A stretch of 64,000 nt of DNA from Thermoplasmatota archaeon (GTDB lineage Archaea > Thermoplasmatota > E2 > JACPAO01 > JAHFTW01), in the NCBI GenBank assembly GCA_038046725.1, contig JBBSVQ010000018.1:24168-88167 (forward strand), given 5' to 3'. Below are positions 3,379 through 12,563 of this stretch, piece by piece (position 1 is the first letter of the stretch; each line of letters begins with the position of its first letter). Under the pieces are notes generated by a model. That model was not told the DNA's origin, did no database searches, and worked only from the letters and a program-made list of their open reading frames with translations. Made by a program: the position numbers and the translations under genes.

Positions 3379-4514
3379 ACACCTTCGGCCGCCGTTTCCG
3401 CGTGAGCCTCTTCGGCGAATCGCATGGCGCGGGCGTCGGCGTGCTCGTCGACGGCGTCCCGGCCGGCCAACCCGTCGACGTCGCGCGCCTGCAGGCGGCC
3501 CTGGACGCCCGCCGCCCGGGAACGTCGCGCCTCGTCAGCGCCCGCAAGGAATCCGACAGGGCGCAGATTCTCTCCGGCGTCCATCGCGGCCGGGCCACTG
3601 GCGCGCCGCTTGCCGTTTGGGTCGCCAACGAGGACGCCGACAGCAAATCCTACGTCGACGTGGCGACGGTGCCACGCCCAGGCCACGCCGACTGGGTCAA
3701 CCACGTGTGGAGCGGCGGCAACGCCGACTTGCGCGGCGGCGGGCACGCATCCGGCCGCCTGACCGCCGGCCTCGTCGCAGCAGGCGCGCTCGCGGATGGC
3801 CTGCTGGCCCCGCTCGGCATCGCATGCGCCGCGCACGTCACGCAGGTCGGCGCCATCGCGGGTCCCGTTGGCACGTTGTCAGCGGCGCAAATGGCGAAGG
3901 GGCGCGCATCCCCCGTCGGGACGGCCCACAAGATGCTGGAGGGCCGCATGGTCGCCGTCGTCGAAGCGGCGCGCGCGGCCGGGGACTCCATCGGAGGCGC
4001 AGTCGCCTTCGCTGCGGACGGGCTCCCCGTCGGCCTCGGTGACCCGTGGATGGATCCCTTGGAGTCCACGCTCGCGCACCTCCTCTTCGCGGTCCCCGCA
4101 GTCAAGGCCGTGTCGTTCGGCGAAGGCGAGGGAGCCGCAGCCATGGCAGGCTCGGCCCACAACGACGCCTACGCGCTCAAGTCGGGTCGCATCCGGCCGA
4201 CGACGAACCACGCGGGGGGCATCCTGGGCGGCCGCAGCACGGGTGAACGGCTGTGGGGGCAATGCACGGTCAAGCCGGCGTCGAGCATCGCGCGCGAGCA
4301 GGTCACCGCGGACGTCGCAACGGGCAAATCCCGCAAGGTCAAGGTCACGGGTCGCCACGACCCCTGCATCGCCATCCGGGCCGCGCCGGTCATCGCGGCT
4401 TGCTTGTCCATCGCGCTCGCCGATGCCGTGCTGCTGGGTCGGGAGCAAGGGTTGGAAGGTTGCTGGCCGGCCAAGGCGAAGGCCCCTGGCCGAGCAACGG
4501 CGCGTGACCAGTGA
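3375..4514 (+). CDS. aroC: Chorismate synthase
   Basis: MNTFGRRFRVSLFGESHG, PRPGHAD, RGGGHASGRLTA, NHAGGILGG, GRHDPCI; ATGA overlap with aroA. Confidence 0.95.
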   Translation: MNTFGRRFRVSLFGESHGAGVGVLVDGVPAGQPVDVARLQAALDARRPGTSRLVSARKESDRAQILSGVHRGRATGAPLAVWVANEDADSKSYVDVATVPRPGHADWVNHVWSGGNADLRGGGHASGRLTAGLVAAGALADGLLAPLGIACAAHVTQVGAIAGPVGTLSAAQMAKGRASPVGTAHKMLEGRMVAVVEAARAAGDSIGGAVAFAADGLPVGLGDPWMDPLESTLAHLLFAVPAVKAVSFGEGEGAAAMAGSAHNDAYALKSGRIRPTTNHAGGILGGRSTGERLWGQCTVKPASSIAREQVTADVATGKSRKVKVTGRHDPCIAIRAAPVIAACLSIALADAVLLGREQGLEGCWPAKAKAPGRATARDQ

Positions 4515-4523
4515 ATCGGTCCC

Positions 4524-4545
4524 GTCCAACGTCTTCCGACGCCGA
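4524..4545 (-). repeat. Family B right-end fragment
   Basis: GTCCAACGTCTTCCGACGCCGA. Confidence 0.5.
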
Positions 4546-4570
4546 GCACGCCCTTCGGCCAGCCCCGCTT

Positions 4571-4618
4571 GCCGCGGATTGGCACGGACAATCCGTGGGC
4601 ATCCGTGCAATCCGTGGC
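4571..4618. repeat. Family A hairpin
   Basis: GCCGCGGATTGGCACGGA ... ATCCGTGCAATCCGTGGC. Confidence 0.75.
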
Positions 4619-4699
4619 TAGTTCGGGCGCCGTCAGTCCCCATGGACGCAACCGGGAAGCCCCGTTTGCAATGGACGTAAACGGCCATCCTGTCCACGC

Positions 4700-4712
4700 A
4701 AGCTCTAAGCGG
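4700..4712 (+). promoter_or_regulatory. Candidate TATA-like element of the his operon
   Basis: AAGCTCTAAG lies 27 nt before ATG 4737. A similar AACGCTCTAAAG lies about 24 nt before the minus-strand ATG at 17594. Confidence 0.45.
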
Positions 4713-4736
4713 CCGACCCTGCTGCGTCGACCGAGC

Positions 4737-4781
4737 ATGCTTCTGGCCTGCCTCGCCCTGCACACCGTGCATCATGGGTGA
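4737..4781 (+). CDS. Putative his leader peptide MLLACLALHTVHHG
   Basis: ATG CTT CTG GCC TGC CTC GCC CTG CAC ACC GTG CAT CAT GGG TGA; three His codons in the last six codons, directly upstream of hisG. Confidence 0.5.
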   Translation: MLLACLALHTVHHG

Positions 4782-5827
4782 GTGCAAGCCAGGCGCCGCC
4801 GACCCGCAACCGCTTTTCGTGCGTGGCCGGCTCCCCTGGTGAACGAATGACCCCAGCCCCGCCCACGTCCCGCCCCCCGCGCACTCCAGCCGCCACCGCC
4901 CTGCCCCGCGATTCAGCTCGCGCCCCGGCCCGTTCCCCGGCCCGCGCCCCCGCAATCCAACGCCGTGCCCTGCGCCTGGCCATCCCGAACAAGGGCCGAT
5001 TGAGCGACGACTGCGTCGACTTGCTGCGCCGCGCCGGCATCCCACTGCAGGGTTCGTCCGAGCGTCGCCTGTTCGCAGGGGCCCTCGATGGCCGCATGCA
5101 GATCCTCTTCGTGCGCGCCCGCGACATCCCCGCCTACGTCGCCGCCGGCACCGTGGACGCCGGCATGACCGGCCTCGACGTCGTCAAGGAATCGCAAGTC
5201 AAGGTCCGCGACCTGCTCGACCTGCGCTTCGGCGCCTGCCGACTCGTGCTCGCGGTCCCCCATGAGCAGGCGGCCAAGGGACCCAAAGACATCGCGGACG
5301 GCTCGCGCATCGCCACCACGTACCCCAACCTGACCAAGGCGTACTTCGCCAAAGCCCGGCGCCGGGTGCGCATCGTCGGCGTCTCGGGCGCCTGCGAAGT
5401 GGCCCCCATGCTCGGCGTCGCCGACGCCATCACGGACCTCGCCTCGTCGGGCAGCACCCTCGCAATGAACCATTTGCGCGAGGTCAGCACCCTGCTGCAC
5501 TCCACGTGCCACCTCATCGCTCCCGCCAAGACGGACGCGGCCGCCAAGGATGAGCTGGACCGCCTGCGCTTCGCCCTCGGCTCCGTCCTGGCCGCCCGCG
5601 GCAAACGCTACCTCCTGGCCGACGTGCCCCGCAAGGCGCTTCCAGAAATCCAGGCGTTTCTCCCAGGCGTCGCCGGCCCCACAGTCGTCGACATCGCCGG
5701 CCACAAGGACCTCGTCGCCATCCAGGTCGTCGTCGACGAATCCGAGGTGTACGACGCCGTGTCGCGCCTCAAGGCCCTTGGCGGCCGCGGCATCCTCGTC
5801 ATGCCCATCGACCGCATGGTGGCTTGA
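4778..5827 (+). CDS. hisG: ATP phosphoribosyltransferase, long form with C-terminal regulatory domain
   Basis: LRLAIPNKGRL, VRARDIP, RIATTYP, SGACEVAP, DLASSGSTL. Start uncertain (GTG 4778 or ATG 4847); Pro/Ala-rich N-terminal extension. Confidence 0.95.
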   Translation: MSASQAPPTRNRFSCVAGSPGERMTPAPPTSRPPRTPAATALPRDSARAPARSPARAPAIQRRALRLAIPNKGRLSDDCVDLLRRAGIPLQGSSERRLFAGALDGRMQILFVRARDIPAYVAAGTVDAGMTGLDVVKESQVKVRDLLDLRFGACRLVLAVPHEQAAKGPKDIADGSRIATTYPNLTKAYFAKARRRVRIVGVSGACEVAPMLGVADAITDLASSGSTLAMNHLREVSTLLHSTCHLIAPAKTDAAAKDELDRLRFALGSVLAARGKRYLLADVPRKALPEIQAFLPGVAGPTVVDIAGHKDLVAIQVVVDESEVYDAVSRLKALGGRGILVMPIDRMVA

Positions 5828-5870: not shown

Positions 5871-7262
5871 ATGGCCAAGGACCCAATCCCGCAGGTCCGA
5901 GCCCTCGACGCCGCCGCGTGGGCGCTCGCCGACCGGGCCCAGGACGTCCCCGCCCAAGTCGTGGCGGACGCCCGCCGCATCGTGGCCGAGGTCGGAACGG
6001 GCGGCGACAAGGCCCTGCGCGAACACACGCGCCGTTTCGACGGCTGCGACCTCGAGGACCCGTTCCTGACGCCCGCCGCCTGGACTCGTGCGGCGGGCAC
6101 CGTCGCTGCCCCCGTGCGTCAGGCCATCGACGAGAACCTGCGCCGCATCCAGGCCTTCCACGGCCTCCAAACGGGCAAGGCGCAGCGACTGCAAGTCGCC
6201 CCCGGGGTCGTTCTCGGCCGCCGGCCGGTCCCCTACGAAGCCGTCGCCTGCTACGTGCCAGGCGGGCGGGCCACCTACCCGTCAACGGCGCTCATGACGG
6301 TGACGCCCGCGCGCATCGCCGGGTGCAGCCAGATCATCGTCGCAACGCCACCGCGACCCGACGGCACCGTCGACCCGGCCGTCCTGTACGCAGCCAAGAA
6401 AGCCGGCGCCACGCACGTGCTGCGCGCTGGCGGCGCCCAAGCCATTGCCGCCCTCGCCTATGGCACGGAACGCGTTCCCCGCGTGCAGGCCATCGTCGGC
6501 CCCGGCAACGCGTACGTCACTGCAGCCAAGCAGCAGGTCGCAAGCGTCGGCCGCGTCTGGACCGACGCCCCAGCCGGACCAAGCGAGTTGCTCGTCGTCG
6601 CCGACGCGACGGCGGATCCGGCCCGCATCGCCCTCGACCTGCTCGCGCAAGCCGAACACGACCCGGACGCGCAAGTCGTCCTCGTCGCGACCGACCGCAG
6701 GATTGCAGACGCCGTGCGCGCCGAGTTGCAGGACCGCCTGCCCCACCAAAGCCGGGGCGCCATCGTCGCCGCCAGTCTGGCGGACAAGGCAGCGCTGCTT
6801 GTGGCGCGGGACCTCGACGAGGCCCTCCGCTTCGCCAACGCCTACGCGCCCGAGCACCTCACCCTCATGGTCAAGGCCCCCGCCAAGGCCCTCCTGCGCA
6901 TCCGCGACGCTGGCTCGGTCTTCCTTGGCCCCAACGCCCCCGTGTCGCTGGGCGATTATGGTTCGGGAACCAACCACGTCCTGCCCACGATGGGCCACGC
7001 CCGCATCCGCGGCGGCCTGTCTGTCGAGGATTTCCGCAAGTGGGTCACCTGGCAGGACGTCACGCCGGCCGGACTGCGCCGCATCGGGCCAGCCGTCGCA
7101 ACCGTCGCCCGCGCCGAGGGACTCATCGCCCACGCCGAGGCCGTCGAGGGACGCTTGGCGTCCGACGCAGGCCTCCGGGGAAGTCGGGAACCAAGCAAGA
7201 ATTCCGAAGCCCGGGTTTCCCGCGTTTCCCGGAAGGCCCCGTCGAAGGCAGGCAAGCGATGA
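5871..7262 (+). CDS. hisD: Histidinol dehydrogenase
   Basis: CYVPGGRATYPST, GGAQAIAALAYG, VGPGNAYV, AGPSE, QAEHD, YAPEHL, LGDYGSGTNHVLPT. Confidence 0.96.
   Translation: MAKDPIPQVRALDAAAWALADRAQDVPAQVVADARRIVAEVGTGGDKALREHTRRFDGCDLEDPFLTPAAWTRAAGTVAAPVRQAIDENLRRIQAFHGLQTGKAQRLQVAPGVVLGRRPVPYEAVACYVPGGRATYPSTALMTVTPARIAGCSQIIVATPPRPDGTVDPAVLYAAKKAGATHVLRAGGAQAIAALAYGTERVPRVQAIVGPGNAYVTAAKQQVASVGRVWTDAPAGPSELLVVADATADPARIALDLLAQAEHDPDAQVVLVATDRRIADAVRAELQDRLPHQSRGAIVAASLADKAALLVARDLDEALRFANAYAPEHLTLMVKAPAKALLRIRDAGSVFLGPNAPVSLGDYGSGTNHVLPTMGHARIRGGLSVEDFRKWVTWQDVTPAGLRRIGPAVATVARAEGLIAHAEAVEGRLASDAGLRGSREPSKNSEARVSRVSRKAPSKAGKR
7170..7238. repeat. Degenerate family A hairpin inside the hisD 3' end
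   Basis: GGCCTCCGGGGAAGTCGGGAA ... TTTCCCGCGTTTCCCGGAAGGCC. Confidence 0.55.
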
Positions 7263-8332
7263 CGACCGACCGCCAGGCCCGCGTGCAGGGCTGGACGCGC
7301 AAGGAAATCGCGCGCCTGAAGCCGTACTACAAGGCCCCCCTCGCCGGCGACCCACTGCGCCTCGACCAGAACACGAACCTCCTCGGCAACAACCCCGCCC
7401 TCGCCAAGGTGCGCCTCGCCGACGTGGACCTCACGCAGTACCCGACGCGCGACTCGGACGCCTTGCGGCTGGCACTCGCCGACTTCCACGGCTTGCCCGA
7501 CGACCGCTTCGTGTGCGGCAACGGCGGCGACGAGCTCCTCGACATCCTGTGCAAGGCCTTCGGCGCCCCCGGCGCCACCATCGCCACCCCGTGGCCGTCG
7601 TACAGCCTCTACCCGCACGTCGCCGACGTTGCCGGCCTGAAATTCAAGCCCGTGCCGACGAAACGCCAATTCGCGCAACTCGACGTCGACGGCCTGCTCG
7701 ACGCCAAGCCGCGCATCGTCGTCGTGGCGACGCCGAACAACCCCACGGGCACGCGCTTTGCCACCGGCGAGTTGGAACGCCTTGCCGCCGGCCTCGACGG
7801 CATCCTCGTCGTGGACGAGGCCTACATCGAGTACGCCGGCCTCAAGCACTCGTTCCTGCCGCGCATCGAGGAATTCGACAACGTCGTCGTCCTGCGCACC
7901 TTCAGCAAGGCGTACGGCCTCGCCGGCCTGCGCGTTGGCTACCTCGCGGCCAACGAAGCCCTTGCCAACATGCTCAACCGCGCCAAGGCGCCGTTCAACG
8001 TGGGCCTCCTCGCCGAGGCCGTCGCCGCAGCTGCGCTCGACGAGCAAGTGTGGGTCGACGCCGGAGTGAAGATCGTTCGCGTGGAACGCGACCGCATGGC
8101 GCACGGCCTGACGAAACTCGGATTGAAGGTGCACGCAAGCGAAGCCAACTTCCTCCTCACCGAGCCGCCCGCCGGCGCATCGGAGACCCAGGACGCCTTG
8201 CGCAAACGGGGCATCCTCGCCCGCACCTTCACGGACGCCGCCTTGCAGCGCTGCTTGCGCTTCACGGTCGGCGCCCCGCAGCACACCGACCGTCTGCTCG
8301 CCGCCCTCAAGGACGCGGAGGCGACGGCATGA
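7259..8332 (+). CDS. hisC: Histidinol-phosphate aminotransferase
   Basis: LDQNTN, GNGGDELL, PNNPTG, VDEAYIEY, LRTFSKAYGLAGLRVGY (PLP lysine). Confidence 0.95.
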   Translation: MTTDRQARVQGWTRKEIARLKPYYKAPLAGDPLRLDQNTNLLGNNPALAKVRLADVDLTQYPTRDSDALRLALADFHGLPDDRFVCGNGGDELLDILCKAFGAPGATIATPWPSYSLYPHVADVAGLKFKPVPTKRQFAQLDVDGLLDAKPRIVVVATPNNPTGTRFATGELERLAAGLDGILVVDEAYIEYAGLKHSFLPRIEEFDNVVVLRTFSKAYGLAGLRVGYLAANEALANMLNRAKAPFNVGLLAEAVAAAALDEQVWVDAGVKIVRVERDRMAHGLTKLGLKVHASEANFLLTEPPAGASETQDALRKRGILARTFTDAALQRCLRFTVGAPQHTDRLLAALKDAEATA

Positions 8333-8979
8333 CGACCTGGACGGTGCTGGACTACGGTGTCGGCAACCTGCACAGCCTCGCCAAGGCCCTCACCGCAGTG
8401 GGCGCGAAGGTCAAGGTCACCGCCCGCCCCGAGGACCTCGCGGGCGCGGACGTCGCCGTCCTCCCGGGCGTCGGGGCTTTCGGCGCCGTCATGGACTGCC
8501 TCGCCCCGGCGGGCATGGCCCTGCGCCGGCGCCACGCGGACGGCCGGCCGACCCTCGGCATCTGCATCGGAGCCCAAGTGCTGTACGCGGCCAGCGACGA
8601 GACGCCCGGGGCCAAGGGCCTCGGCATCTTCCCCGGCACGGTGCGTCGCCTGCCCGCATCCGCAGGCAAGGTGCCGCACATGGGTTGGAACACCCTCGAG
8701 CCGGCGCCATCGGGCGCGGCCTCCGACAACCCTTCAGGGCTCGGTTTGCAGGATTCCTTGTTCGAAGGCGTCCCCGCGGGCAGCCACGTGTACTACGTGC
8801 ACGGCTACGCAGCGCCCGTCGGACCCGAGACCGTGGCCAGCACCCGCTACGGCACGGTTTTCACGGCGGCCCTGCGTCAAGGCGCCACCGTGGGAGTCCA
8901 GTTCCACCCCGAGAAGTCCAGCGCCGTCGGGCGGCGCATCCTTGCCAACGCCGTGCGCGACCTGGAGGCTCACGCATGA
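8329..8979 (+). CDS. hisH: Imidazole glycerol phosphate synthase, glutaminase subunit
   Basis: DYGVGNLHS, LPGVGAF, LGICIGAQ, PHMGWN, YYVHGY, QFHPEKS. Confidence 0.95.
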   Translation: MTTWTVLDYGVGNLHSLAKALTAVGAKVKVTARPEDLAGADVAVLPGVGAFGAVMDCLAPAGMALRRRHADGRPTLGICIGAQVLYAASDETPGAKGLGIFPGTVRRLPASAGKVPHMGWNTLEPAPSGAASDNPSGLGLQDSLFEGVPAGSHVYYVHGYAAPVGPETVASTRYGTVFTAALRQGATVGVQFHPEKSSAVGRRILANAVRDLEAHA

Positions 8980-9863
8980 GTGCCTTCCCCGCGGCGCCGG
9001 CGAAGGAAGCCGGCTTCATCCTGTACCCTGCCATCGACTTGCGCCACGGCAAGGTCGTGCAACTCGTCGGCGGCGACCCCAAGCAAGTCGCCGTCCAGTG
9101 GGATGACGCACACGAGACGTTCAAGCAATGGGAGCAGGCCAAGTCCACGTGGGTGCACGTCGTCGACCTCGACGCCGCCTTCGGGGAACGCAACCAGTGG
9201 TCGCAACTGCCGCGCCTGCTCGGCCACCGCGTGCGCGTGCAGTTCGGTGGCGGCGTGCGCAGCATGATGCAGATCCAGCAACTCTTCGAGCTCGGCGTCG
9301 AGCGCGTGGTCGTGGGAACGCAAGGCGTGCAGAACCCGTTGTGGGTGCGCGAATTGTGCAAGGTGTTCCCGGGGCGAATCGTGCTTGCCGTGGACGCACG
9401 CGGCCGCGAAGTCGTCGTGAAGGGGTGGACCGAGGCAACGGGGAAGGATGTGGTCGAACTCGCGCGCAGCTTGGATGACGCGGGACTCGCTGCATTCCTG
9501 TACACCAACGTCGAGAAGGAGGGACGGCTGCAGGGCATCGACCGCCAAGTCATCGAGGACCTGCACCGCAATGCGCCCAAGACGCCCCTCATCGTATCCG
9601 GGGGAATCGCCACGATTGCAGACCTGGAGTGGCTGGCTCAGGCCGGCGTCTCGGGCGCCGTCCTGGGCATGAGCATCTACACGGGCGCCATCGACCTCGC
9701 CAAGGCCAACGAGCGCTTCCCGCAACCGGTCCACCGCCCCAAGCTTATCGCGCGTGCCTTGCCCGAGGAGGACCCGGAAGGCGCCGACGGCTACGTGCAA
9801 GTCATCCGCGGCCGCGAGGTCGAGGACCCCGACGAACCCGACTCCGACGAGGCCGCCTTGTGA
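8976..9863 (+). CDS. hisA: ProFAR isomerase with acidic C-terminal extension
   Basis: YPAIDLRHGKVVQL, HVVDLDAA, QFGGGVR, YTNVEKEG, SGGI. Confidence 0.93.
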   Translation: MSAFPAAPAKEAGFILYPAIDLRHGKVVQLVGGDPKQVAVQWDDAHETFKQWEQAKSTWVHVVDLDAAFGERNQWSQLPRLLGHRVRVQFGGGVRSMMQIQQLFELGVERVVVGTQGVQNPLWVRELCKVFPGRIVLAVDARGREVVVKGWTEATGKDVVELARSLDDAGLAAFLYTNVEKEGRLQGIDRQVIEDLHRNAPKTPLIVSGGIATIADLEWLAQAGVSGAVLGMSIYTGAIDLAKANERFPQPVHRPKLIARALPEEDPEGADGYVQVIRGREVEDPDEPDSDEAAL

Positions 9864-10417
9864 CGCGCACCGCCACCGTGCAACGCAAGACGAAGGAGAC
9901 CGTCGTCGAGGCCACCCTCGACCTCGACGGCTCCGGCAAGTACGACGTCAAGACGGACAATCCGTTCCTCACGCACATGTGCGAGACGTGGACGCGTTAC
10001 GCGGGCTTCGACCTGAAGCTGCGCGCAACGGGCGACCTTGACCACCACCTCGTCGAGGACGTCGCCATCGTGCTTGGGCAAGCCTTCCGCCAGGCCTTCG
10101 CCCAGGCCCCCTGTGTACGCATTGCATACGACTTCGTGCCCATGGACGACGCCCTCGTCCTGTGCGCCGTCGACCTCGTGGACCGCCCCTACTACGCGGG
10201 CGAATTGCCTGTGCCATTGTGGGAGCATTGGTTCCGCAGCTTTGCCATGGAGGCCCGCATCAATTTGCACATCGAGCCGCTGCGCGGGCGCGACACGCAC
10301 CACACCCTGGAGGCCAGCACGAAGGCCTTCGCGCGGGCGCTGCGGCGCGCCCTCGAACCGCGCGCGACGGAGATTTCAACGAAAGGCCGCGCGACGGTCA
10401 AGAGCGTGCGCAAGTGA
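9860..10417 (+). CDS. hisB: Imidazoleglycerol-phosphate dehydratase
   Basis: RKTKET, DHHLVED, VPMDDAL, GRDTHHTLEASTKA; GTGA overlap with hisA. Confidence 0.93.
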   Translation: MTRTATVQRKTKETVVEATLDLDGSGKYDVKTDNPFLTHMCETWTRYAGFDLKLRATGDLDHHLVEDVAIVLGQAFRQAFAQAPCVRIAYDFVPMDDALVLCAVDLVDRPYYAGELPVPLWEHWFRSFAMEARINLHIEPLRGRDTHHTLEASTKAFARALRRALEPRATEISTKGRATVKSVRK

Positions 10418-10428
10418 CATGGGCCGAC

Positions 10429-10585
10429 CCATCCACCGATGACACCGATGTCACCGATGCGGGAACCCATCGGTGGGAATCGGTGAGCATCGGTGGATGG
10501 TCCTTCGCGAGGCCCCGACCGTCCGCCGATGACGCCAATCCCGCCGATGCTGCAGCATCATCGGCGCCATCGGCGCGATCGGCGG
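10429..10585. repeat. Two tandem family A hairpins between hisB and hisF
   Basis: CCATCCACCGATGACACCGATGTCACCGATG...CATCGGTGGGAATCGGTGAGCATCGGTGGATGG, then CCGCCGATG...ATCGGCGG. Confidence 0.85.
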
Positions 10586-10613
10586 TTCCGTCGGCACGCA
10601 GTGCGGTGCTCGC

Positions 10614-11393
10614 GTGACCCTGGCCAAACGCGTCGTCGTGTGCCTCGACGTTGACGGCGGCCGCGTCGTCAAGGGCGTCAAGTTCCAAGGCCTGCGTGAT
10701 GTCGGCGACCCGGCGGAGTTGGCCGCCCGCTACGAGGCGGAAGGCGCAGACGAAATCGTCTTCCTGGACATCTCCGCAAGCCACCAGGGCCGAGCCACGC
10801 TGCTGGACGCCGTGCGCCGCACGGCGGAACGGCTGTTCATCCCCCTGACCGTGGGAGGCGGCATCGCCTCCCCCGACGACATGCGGGCCGCCCTCAACGC
10901 CGGCGCCGACAAAGTCGCCGTCAACACGGCGGCCCTCGACCGCCCGCAACTCATCACCGAGTGCGCAGCGCGCTTCGGGTCGCAGTGCGTCGTCGTGGCC
11001 ATCGACGCCAAGCGAGCCCACCCGTCCATTGCCTCCCAGGGCGGCCGGCGCTGGAGCGTCTTCTCGCACGGCGGCCGCCGCGACACGGGCCGCGACGCCC
11101 TCCATTGGGCGCAGGATGCCGCCCGCCTCGGCGCGGGCGAACTGCTTCTGACCTCGATCGATGCCGACGGGACGCAGTCCGGCTACGACCTCGAGCTGAC
11201 GCGCGCCATCGCCGCCACCGTGCCCATCCCCGTCGTCGCTTCCGGGGGCTGCGGGCGGCCGGAGCATCTCGCCGATGCCTTGAAGGCGGGCGCCGATGCC
11301 GCCTTGGCGGCCAGCATCTTCCACGACCGCCGGACGACCGTCCATGACGCCAAGCGCATCCTCGCAGACCAGGGCATCCCGGTGCGACCATGA
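10614..11393 (+). CDS. hisF: Imidazole glycerol phosphate synthase, cyclase subunit
   Basis: [50 protein letters not shown]. Confidence 0.96.
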
Positions 11394-11417
11394 CCGCCTG
11401 CCGCGGGCGGTGACGGC

Positions 11418-12563
11418 GTGAGCAAACGCAAGGTGTCCACCAAGAAGGCCAAGGCGAAGGCTCCAGCGGCCCGCAAGACGCCCGTCGTGCGCAAGCCGAA
11501 GCGCCCGGCGAAATCCAATGGGGCTGCCGCCGCCCGTCCCGCGTCGGCCAATGCGTCGTCGGCCCCGCGCGGCCCCCCCGCTGGCCTGGCCCGTGCCCTC
11601 GCGATGGCCAGTGCCGACGTCGGCGACGTGCAGCTGAAGTCCAAGTCCGGGCCGACGCAGACGTTGGAGTCCGACGAGGAACCCGTCGTCGCGCGCCGAC
11701 CTGCCGCGGCCGCTACGCCAGCGGCCAGCGCGCCCCCCTCGCCTCGCGGCAACGCGGTCATTCTCGACGATGCTGACGACGATGCCCCGATGGTCGTCAA
11801 AGGCGGCGCCGCGAAGGTGCAGGCGTCGCTTGGCGACGGCGTGCAGGTCGCCGGGAAAGGCCCAGCCAAGTTCAGCCTCGAGGACATGGAGGCCCTGCGC
11901 AAGGCCATCGTCATCAAAGGTTCGGGCCGCATCGTCGCCGGCATCAATCTCGACGAGCTGAAGTACGACCAAGAGGGGCTCATCGCCGTCGTCACCCAGG
12001 ACCGCGTCACCGGTGCCGTCCTCATGCAGGCGTGGGCCAACAAGGAGGCCCTGGAGAAGTCGCTCACCACGAACGAGATGACGTACTTCTCGCGCCAGCG
12101 CAACAAGCTCTGGACGAAGGGCGAGGATTCGGGCAACACGCAGACGCTGCTGCACGTCAAGGTGGACTGCGACAAGGACTCCATTCTCGCCGTCGTCGAC
12201 CAGAAGGGCGTTGCGTGCCACCGCGAGACCGGCACCTGCTTCGCGGACGGCCGGGACATCCCGATGGCCGGCTTCCTGGGCGAACTCGACGCCCTCATCG
12301 CGGAACGCGCCAAGGAACGCCCGGAGGGCTCCTACACGACGCGACTGCTCGAGGACCCGAGCCTCGCGGCCGGCAAAGTCGTCGAGGAAGCCAAGGAAGT
12401 GGCGCAAGTGCTCAAAGGCAAACCCAACAAGGACACCCTGCAGCACGAGGCCGCCGACCTCGTCTTCCACTTGATGGTGGCCTGCCGCATCAAAGGCGTC
12501 ACGCTGCGTGACATCGTCACCGAACTCGCGGCGCGGCACACGAAGGACCCGAAGAAGGTCTGA
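11418..12563 (+). CDS. hisIE: Bifunctional PR-AMP cyclohydrolase / PR-ATP pyrophosphatase with about 170-aa N-terminal low-complexity extension
   Basis: HisI: YFSRQRNKLWTKGEDSGN, DCDKDS, ACH...TCF. HisE: EGSYTTRLL, KVVEEA, HEAADLVFH. GGTGA SD-like motif just before GTG. Confidence 0.92.
   Translation: MSKRKVSTKKAKAKAPAARKTPVVRKPKRPAKSNGAAAARPASANASSAPRGPPAGLARALAMASADVGDVQLKSKSGPTQTLESDEEPVVARRPAAAATPAASAPPSPRGNAVILDDADDDAPMVVKGGAAKVQASLGDGVQVAGKGPAKFSLEDMEALRKAIVIKGSGRIVAGINLDELKYDQEGLIAVVTQDRVTGAVLMQAWANKEALEKSLTTNEMTYFSRQRNKLWTKGEDSGNTQTLLHVKVDCDKDSILAVVDQKGVACHRETGTCFADGRDIPMAGFLGELDALIAERAKERPEGSYTTRLLEDPSLAAGKVVEEAKEVAQVLKGKPNKDTLQHEAADLVFHLMVACRIKGVTLRDIVTELAARHTKDPKKV

Follow-up and report, generated by a model that had tools for sequence, protein, structure and literature searches.

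The stretch of DNA analysed here (the window) consists of 64,000 nucleotides from a Thermoplasmatota archaeon (assembly GCA_038046725.1, contig JBBSVQ010000018.1, positions 24,168–88,167), and the element of interest lies directly upstream of hisG, the first gene of a histidine (his) operon. The parts of the leader and of the his operon described are on the forward strand. A short upstream open reading frame (uORF) of 14 codons plus stop is found at positions 4737–4781, and it encodes the peptide MLLACLALHTVHHG. From the ATG at 4737–4739, its codons read CTT CTG GCC TGC CTC GCC CTG CAC ACC GTG CAT CAT GGG, followed by TGA at 4779–4781. Three of the 14 codons specify His (CAC at 4761–4763, CAT at 4770–4772 and CAT at 4773–4775), the last two forming a single tandem pair, and 65 nt separate the stop from the hisG ATG at 4847. 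The original prediction, drawn from the window alone, had described a uORF starting at ATG 4737 with CAC, CAT and CAT clustered at its end, and direct reading confirms it. Comparison of hisG loci shows a conserved mini-gene with a bias to His and a codon choice of its own, which has a fixed place between a candidate promoter and hisG and is accompanied by a hairpin and a T-tract. Taken as a whole, these properties are probably best explained by a His-operon leader in which a ribosome stalled at the His codons of the uORF governs read-through into the operon.

The uORF is more than a chance occurrence. Open reading frame (ORF) ends of this type, i.e. 11–20 codons with at least three His in the last eight, number only 17 in all six frames of the 2.07-Mb genome (4.1 Mb of strand sequence in total), and therefore 0.0004 are expected per 100 nt. 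In addition, a tandem His pair is followed by a stop within three codons in only 2.1% of cases genome-wide. The G+C content around the leader is ∼65–71%, and that of the genome is 67.7%. The uORF frame is open for 70 codons from a TTG at 4569, but conservation in relatives is seen only from ATG 4737 onward.

HisG was searched for in 41 related genomes and then in all 38 species genomes of the order. In this order of uncultured archaea, 31 genomes contain hisG, and 29 of them have upstream sequence. The uORF is present in all 29 informative genomes. It has 11–20 codons, an ATG or GTG start and two to five His in the last eight codons, and it ends 33–68 nt (once 126 nt) before the hisG start. 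Examples of the peptides are MALPCLSLLHLHHG, VAPTHVHHAHHA, MPLRCPGLHPLHHQ, MLAPTLLHGPSAHHA and MARSTTVFHHGAHHA, each directly followed by the stop. Thus the expectation that short His-rich uORFs would precede hisG in related Thermoplasmatota is borne out. Three genomes that came up only in a later search were used for out-of-sample testing, and each conforms to the pattern (MRTSRAVHHLHHAA, VAQSASPVHLHHG and VAQSPCPVHLHHG, each again ending at a stop). Three metagenome-assembled genomes (MAGs) from outside the order list also have the uORF (L035, L036 and L046).

The loci were compared by a fixed score, the His count in the last eight codons of a 9–22-codon ORF ending 20–135 nt before hisG. The ingroup comprised the 28 loci first collected, 26 from genomes of the order together with L035 and L046 from outside it. 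The outgroup comprised 49 hisG loci from Methanomassiliicoccales, other Thermoplasmata, Methanosarcinaceae, Hydrothermarchaeota and a haloarchaeon. All 28 ingroup loci score at least 2 (mean 2.75) and all 49 outgroup loci score 1 or less (mean 0.24; Mann–Whitney p = 4e-15). In shuffled upstream regions, the probability of a score of at least 2 is 0.012, and of at least 3 is 0.0011. It should be pointed out that the 28 loci do not represent 28 independent events, since they are related. HisG identity to the window protein falls to 48% across the loci, and the remainder of the uORF peptide has diverged beyond recognition. The leader accompanies hisG irrespective of the gene upstream, aroC in some loci and an asd-like gene in others.

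Some of the more distant loci show peculiarities. A genome listed in the same genus as the window (G006, locus L024) has a HisG that is only 48% identical, and the HisG tree places it with L035, L036 and L046, which belong to other MAG lineages; its uORF, VAWPGLPLAHAQHLHA followed by a stop, lies within a very stable hairpin. Two other Thermoplasmata MAGs (L050 and L094) share a 13-codon uORF, M[AV][KN]R[KT][SA]VFGSLHA-stop, which has one His and is ∼120 nt before hisG. A perfect CATGCG/CGCATG hairpin spans its His codon and stop. This uORF is possibly a divergent form of the same leader with a single His codon. A candidate before a Hydrothermarchaeota hisG, AHPYHHPR-stop, was rejected as a uORF, as it has no start codon.

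The codons themselves also carry a signal. His accounts for 84 of 367 uORF codons (22.9%), whereas the two remaining frames have 1.6% and 2.5% and the HisG protein has 1.8%. It is most frequent at position −3 relative to the stop codon (21 of 28 loci), followed by position −2 (19 of 28). The uORFs of relatives have two to five His, with a maximum of two consecutive. The ratio of CAT to CAC is 62:22 in the uORFs vs 22:123 in the hisG genes; that is, the rare codon is preferred. The genome has one tRNA-His(GUG) by ARAGORN, and therefore CAU must be read by G:U wobble. Synonymous CAT/CAC exchanges are observed between loci (L008/L009, L019/L023 and L012/L029), and His codons have been gained or have shifted between loci while the rest of the peptide is unconserved. 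The frame-specific His content, the CAT preference, the synonymous exchanges and the rarity of a stop soon after a His pair argue for selection on in-frame His codons just before a stop, and not on a nucleotide word.

A TATA-like box had been described in the original prediction upstream of the uORF. Its place stands, as relatives have clearer boxes at the same position, but the box of the window itself, CTCTAAG at 4703–4709, 28–34 nt before the start codon, is weak. Across the 28 loci, A/T content peaks at −35 to −26 from the uORF start (0.54–0.59 vs a background of 0.2–0.35), and the clear boxes found there include CCAAATACC, CTTAAATC, GTTTATTGG and TTTAAAAC. The archaeal TATA box is centred ∼26–27 nt before the transcription start site. 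This spacing, together with the A/T peak, suggests that transcription starts at or within ∼5–8 nt of the uORF start codon. No Shine-Dalgarno sequence precedes the uORF start, and a consensus scan shows no sigma-70 promoter. The properties fit a leaderless or nearly leaderless mRNA that begins with the putative sensor ORF.

The upstream flank of the box differs between genomes. In L002 and L003, aroC ends only ∼10–30 nt before the uORF, and the his TATA box is within the last aroC codons. The window has an aroC-his spacer of 222 nt, and ∼190 nt with short dispersed repeats lie between aroC and the box. Within this spacer, in the part at 4515–4702, bases 4522–4545 recur at least seven times in the genome and bases 4592–4620 three times. 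A hairpin at 4566–4623 is the source of chance matches to microRNA families.

The start of hisG needs consideration, as the uORF stop overlaps a GTG (4778–4780) that is in frame with hisG. This overlap had been correctly noted in the original prediction, which saw in it a possible site of termination-reinitiation. The GTG opens an ORF of 349 codons, but the HisG match begins only at codon 65. The ATG at 4847 begins hisG, which encodes the long form of ATP phosphoribosyltransferase (4847–5827; TIGR00070, 7.7e-61, and TIGR03455 for the C-terminal domain, 3.3e-25). It starts with MTPAP and follows a Shine-Dalgarno sequence, GGTGA, at 4838–4842. In the window and its two closest relatives the conserved ATG (MTPAP) is preceded by CTGGTGAAC, and CTGGTGAAC(C)GA-ATG is kept in L001, L002, L003 and L009; other relatives have GGAGG or GAGG. 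The hisG start in relatives is 2–4 codons before the motif LRLAIPNKGRL. In L002 an in-frame stop lies between the GTG and ATG candidate starts, and the spacers between uORF and hisG differ in length by 5, 6, 13 and 26 nt, non-multiples of three among them. The GTG at 4778 was rejected as the hisG start because of the domain position, the conserved ATG with its GGTGA, the stop in L002 and the spacer differences; on the same grounds the TGA/GTG overlap is accidental. Reinitiation at this overlap is therefore rejected as well. Between MTPAP and LRLAIPNKGRL, HisG has a Pro/Ala/Arg-rich low-complexity insertion (4850–4966 in the window). It is 40 residues long in the window, 33 in L002 and 19 in L003, and is absent from L009; the insertion therefore expands and contracts quickly.

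RNA folding of the segment from the uORF start to 22 nt beyond the stop predicts a hairpin (hairpin 1, 4742–4793, with weak outer pairs to 4735–4799), in which the first half of the uORF is base-paired to the stop codon plus the following 12 nt. The His codons and stop are in the upper part, and the helices outward are CUCGCCC/GGGUGAG, UGC/GCA and UCUGGC/GCCAGG. The minimum-energy fold also pairs TGCAC (4759–4763) with GTGCA (4767–4771). The hairpin has −36 kcal/mol and a z-score of −3.62, none of 200 dinucleotide shuffles is as stable, and it makes up 0.72 of the ensemble. Folding thus supports the earlier proposal of a stem that encloses the His codons and the stop. Structures of this kind recur in relatives: uORF-enclosing hairpins have z ≤ −2 in 12 of the 20 loci folded. 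For the 5′ part of each uORF, pairing with the post-stop region of the same locus is stronger than with post-stop regions from other loci (−22.7 vs −19.1 kcal/mol, permutation p < 5e-5), and also stronger than with equal-length pieces of hisG or hisD of that locus (Fisher p = 4e-6; window z = −1.4). Compensatory changes were seen once between L007 and L014 (G-C to U-A) and as two double changes between L011 and L030, in a small hairpin that presents CAU-UGA in its loop; those between L008 and L009 are probable. The hairpin is present in individual sequences but in shifting registers.

In the minimum-energy fold of the whole leader, a second hairpin (hairpin 2, 4798–4831, GCCGACCCGC...GCGTGGCCGGC) follows. 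A search of Rfam shows no His_leader, T-box or riboswitch at E ≤ 10 in 4000–5400 and none at gathering score in the window, and no His_leader or T-box match in 20 related loci. Only chance matches far below threshold were found, i.e. microRNA families and a DnaX-like family, the latter a weak match over the hairpin 2 stem.

A T4 tract between the uORF and hisG, at 4814–4817, is a candidate archaeal pause or termination signal, based on the enrichment of such tracts in the spacers of relatives. Runs of at least four T are found in 15 of 28 spacers, compared with 0.38 expected from coding controls, and the genome expectation is 0.024 per 65 nt. Runs of at least five T occur in seven of the 28, and runs of at least four A in none; the strong enrichment is specific to T and to the strand. 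Archaeal termination signals in Thermococcus, Sulfolobus and Haloferax consist of about five or more T on the sense strand. When the RNA is folded only up to the tract, the helix that encloses the uORF ends 0–6 nt before it in 15 of 24 loci. A consensus scan found no bacterial-type terminator.

These elements can be assembled into a mechanism, whose steps are predicted from sequence. The archaeal promoter would start transcription at, or a few bases from, the 14-codon mini-gene that ends in His codons, and a ribosome translating it would sense how much charged tRNA-His is available. Under a shortage of His-tRNA, it would stall at the tandem CAT codons, two codons ahead of the stop, and keep the arms of hairpin 1 apart. 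When His-tRNA is plentiful, the ribosome would finish and leave, and hairpin 1 would fold. The most likely consequence of a folded, ribosome-free leader would be early pausing or termination at the T-tract, before a ribosome loads at the hisG Shine-Dalgarno sequence. A stalled ribosome behind a polymerase at the T-tract would instead lead to read-through into hisG-D-C-H-A-B-F-IE. A ribosome with the last His codon in its A site would be 29–53 nt (median 44, and 80 in one locus) behind a polymerase at the end of the T-tract, close enough to block the hairpin and to cover the nascent RNA, and a released ribosome would leave ∼56–93 nt of folded, naked leader before a hisG ribosome could load. That the leader senses His-tRNA in one way or another appears quite likely. 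A transcriptional output, taken by itself, is put forward more tentatively, with somewhat less than even confidence.

Several observations weigh against the read-through mechanism. The window has a small number of His codons, three with one tandem pair, vs seven in a row in E. coli hisL; its TATA box is weak, and a repeat-bearing spacer of 222 nt separates the leader from aroC. The tract of the window is only T4; 14 nt separate it from hairpin 1, and it falls within the hairpin 2 loop. Of the 28 loci, 13 are without a run of at least four T. Archaeal RNA polymerase is not known to need hairpins for termination. In a crude genome-wide test with crude gene ends, T-runs are only ∼2-fold enriched after gene ends, and T-runs as general terminators were rejected on this basis. 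Hairpin 1 is not universal, as it is not significant in a second family of loci (L019–L023) or in L035. With RNAalifold, a MAFFT alignment of eight close loci yields no common structure, and no mutually exclusive antiterminator pairing was found.

The same sensor might have a translational output, where a ribosome at the uORF end alters access to the hisG ribosome-binding site 30–65 nt downstream and transcription is unaffected. The short spacer is in keeping with this, as is the finding that hisG always has its own Shine-Dalgarno sequence. In the second family (L019–L023), CTGGAGG is buried in a hairpin that shows compensatory changes and begins only 5–9 nt after the uORF stop. In L001–L004, the clade of the window, GCCAGG freed from hairpin 1 can pair with CCUGG at the Shine-Dalgarno sequence; however, this pairing would lower access, which is the wrong sign. 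A precedent is found in the leaderless poly-Cys short ORFs of mycobacteria (bioRxiv 10.1101/834739). A stalled ribosome was modelled by masking its footprint at the last His codon or at the stop, with constrained partition-function folding. The modelled unpaired probability of the hisG Shine-Dalgarno/AUG is the same in all states, i.e. 0.49 for the free leader, 0.46 with a ribosome at the last His and 0.48 with one at the stop (Wilcoxon p = 0.15 and 0.35), and the site of the window is 0.70 unpaired even without a ribosome. Thus an unmasking of the hisG site by the stalled ribosome is not supported in silico, and a transcriptional output, or possibly one at the level of RNA stability, seems somewhat more likely because the modelled pairing is unchanged. 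A purely translational output is considered unlikely.

Leader-peptide attenuation is a textbook example of bacterial transcription-translation coupling, and E. coli hisL has seven consecutive His codons. The archaeal leader resembles enterobacterial hisL (RF00514) in having a short same-strand ORF with clustered His codons directly before hisG, at the head of an operon that begins hisG-hisD. Both have a T-tract before hisG and a hairpin overlapping the 3′ end of the leader ORF, and the His codons are conserved in orthologous leaders. It differs in its archaeal host and in a predicted leaderless start that is TATA-spaced and has no Shine-Dalgarno sequence. It has two to five His at the extreme C-terminus and not seven in a row, and a spacer of 30–65 nt, as opposed to ∼100 nt. 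Alternative 1:2, 2:3 and 3:4 hairpins were not found, nor was a match to RF00514. Judged by its sequence, the element would act as leader-peptide attenuators do, but it falls outside the enterobacterial His_leader family.

The closest architecture is that of leaderless sensor ORFs in bacteria. The mycobacterial poly-Cys short ORFs that make up a ‘ribulon’ are sensor ORFs (bioRxiv 10.1101/834739), and 14 leaderless leader peptides have been predicted in Deinococcus deserti (PMC4007540). These have in common with the archaeal leader a sensor ORF at the 5′ end of the transcript (predicted here), cognate codons near its end and the cognate operon close by, but they are bacterial. Furthermore, a duplex that hides the next ribosome-binding site and is opened by stalling, as in the mycobacterial Cys type, is not supported here by in silico folding. 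A full-text literature search, of incomplete coverage, found no report of leader-peptide control in archaea.

The origin of the leader was approached with a HisG tree, built with FastTree from the ingroup and the 80 best public loci. In it, the archaea with the uORF group together in a single clade (support 0.948), and its sister is a clade of Acidobacteriota and Gemmatimonadota (support 0.707, which is weak) and not the other Thermoplasmatota. Classical His leaders are predicted in 8 of 10 bacteria examined in the sister clade (L059, L064, L073, L075, L079, L082, L092 and L100). The carriers are Gemmatimonadota and an Acidobacteriota MAG, and the peptides, of the HHHVHHHG type, include MTSALRHHHVHHHGPTGRG..., MTLNRYTLRHHHHHGPHG... 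and M..RRHHHVHHHGPTGRG. These bacterial leaders have 24–30 codons and end 98–151 nt before hisG, and in most of the loci runs of five or more T are found closer to the gene. The seven other than that of L092 have six to eight His in mid-peptide and end 98–133 nt before hisG, and in most of these the T-runs are 31–64 nt before hisG. The archaeal leader is far more compact and stops right after HHG or HHA, but the core H-[V/L]-H-H-(H)-G is common to both. The order hisG-hisD is also found in the Gemmatimonadaceae locus L079 (HisD 46% identical), but not in Methanomassiliicoccus (L039). In addition, the his operon is patchily distributed: of 13 genomes in the genus of the window, six lack hisG (G004, G005 and G007–G010), four of them 89–92% complete, and hisG is absent from 10 genomes sampled from other orders of the class. 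The sister clade with leaders, the shared core, the gene order and the patchy operon together suggest, as a hypothesis, that the his operon and its leader crossed from bacteria and were then remodelled.

Such an origin raises the question of whether the leader is a relic that no longer senses anything. It could be a leaderless ribosome-loading or mRNA-protecting cap left from a bacterial-type his operon, or hairpin 1 and the T-tract could insulate the operon from the one upstream, with the supply of His irrelevant in either case. The sister relationship to bacteria with classical leaders and the much reduced His run can be read in this way, and the hairpin and T-tract could end transcripts that come from aroC directly upstream. 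However, a relic would decay. Here the His codons are kept in all informative genomes while HisG identity drops to as little as 48% and the other uORF codons turn over, His positions have been regained or moved (CTT in L012 vs CAT in L029), and the rare CAT is preferred. A relic therefore appears improbable.

Least probable of all is that the uORF is not a codon sensor but encodes a His-rich micropeptide, or a motif (HH[G/A]-stop) by which the nascent peptide would cause arrest in response to free histidine, or is a protein-bound DNA or RNA motif: the C-terminal H-x-H-H-[G/A]-stop is indeed the best-conserved feature and trans-acting leader peptides such as peTrpL are known in bacteria, but there is no conserved nucleotide word beyond the in-frame CAY codons, CAT and CAC are exchanged synonymously, the peptide is free to vary in length and sequence, enrichment of His is confined to the start-to-stop frame, and arrest by free His has the wrong sign for a biosynthetic operon.

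A leader that controls read-through by stalling at His codons may be pictured in evolutionary terms as a working archaeal ribosome-mediated amino-acid attenuator, derived from a bacterial his operon that was transferred with its leader. It would have been rebuilt with a TATA promoter, a leaderless sensor ORF, a stop placed directly behind the His pair and, in place of the four-segment switch, an oligo-T signal that is read next to a uORF-enclosing hairpin. This full scenario is somewhat less likely than not, but it has implications. Archaeal termination machinery uses oligo-T signals and FttA, with no Rho, and the leader offers a compact test case of ∼115 nt in a domain with this different machinery. 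If true, archaeal ribosomes can gate the polymerase or the fate of the mRNA by tRNA charging, and the leader may show how a regulatory device survives transfer across domains by being refitted to a leaderless, TATA-driven context. Of practical use are a sequence signature with which his regulation can be annotated in Thermoplasmatota MAGs, and the corrected hisG start.

In the genome of the window, no other convincing His-rich short ORF precedes a gene, i.e. there is no sign of a wider His regulon. When the whole genome was screened for short ORFs rich in a single residue, as leaders of other pathways would be, only noise resulted. The gene trpE (C22:27292–28701) has no leader and overlaps the stop of an upstream folC-like gene, and an archaeal-type aromatic operon (C18:21780–25360; ADH synthase, dehydroquinate synthase II and GHMP-type shikimate kinase) has no uORF. 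The gene ilvB was not found in the assembly.

The host genome, a MAG of 2.07 Mb that is 86% complete, contains a full-length archaeal small subunit (SSU) rRNA, which scores 1455 bits, and an RNase P RNA of archaeal type whose score exceeds the threshold. The assignment of the his operon to an archaeon, as made in the original prediction, is thereby upheld. Public records of close relatives originate from groundwater and sand. Upstream of the leader are aroE, an archaeal-type shikimate kinase gene, aroA and aroC, which ends at 4514.

Runs of at least five T are very rare in this genome, with 234 on both strands of the 2.07 Mb. All six in the window are on the forward strand (33489, 36009, 41567, 43564, 46083 and 61531). 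Several T-runs of the window lie a few bases after a TAG or TGA triplet, irrespective of frame.

The operon has eight genes in the order hisG-D-C-H-A-B-F-IE, and those after hisG lie at 5877–12563. The coding region of hisD extends to 7262, with its start not fixed, and is followed by hisC (7250–8332), hisH (8329–8979, assigned by inference from the N-terminal sequence alone) and hisA (8985–9863). Next are hisB (within 9629–10417, start not fixed), hisF (10614–11393) and hisIE (within 11418–12563, start not fixed). The ORF that ends in HisIE has ∼176 codons before the HisI domain (11418–11945) without a family match; this extension could represent a domain fusion or, the DNA being GC-rich, an ORF that was called too long.

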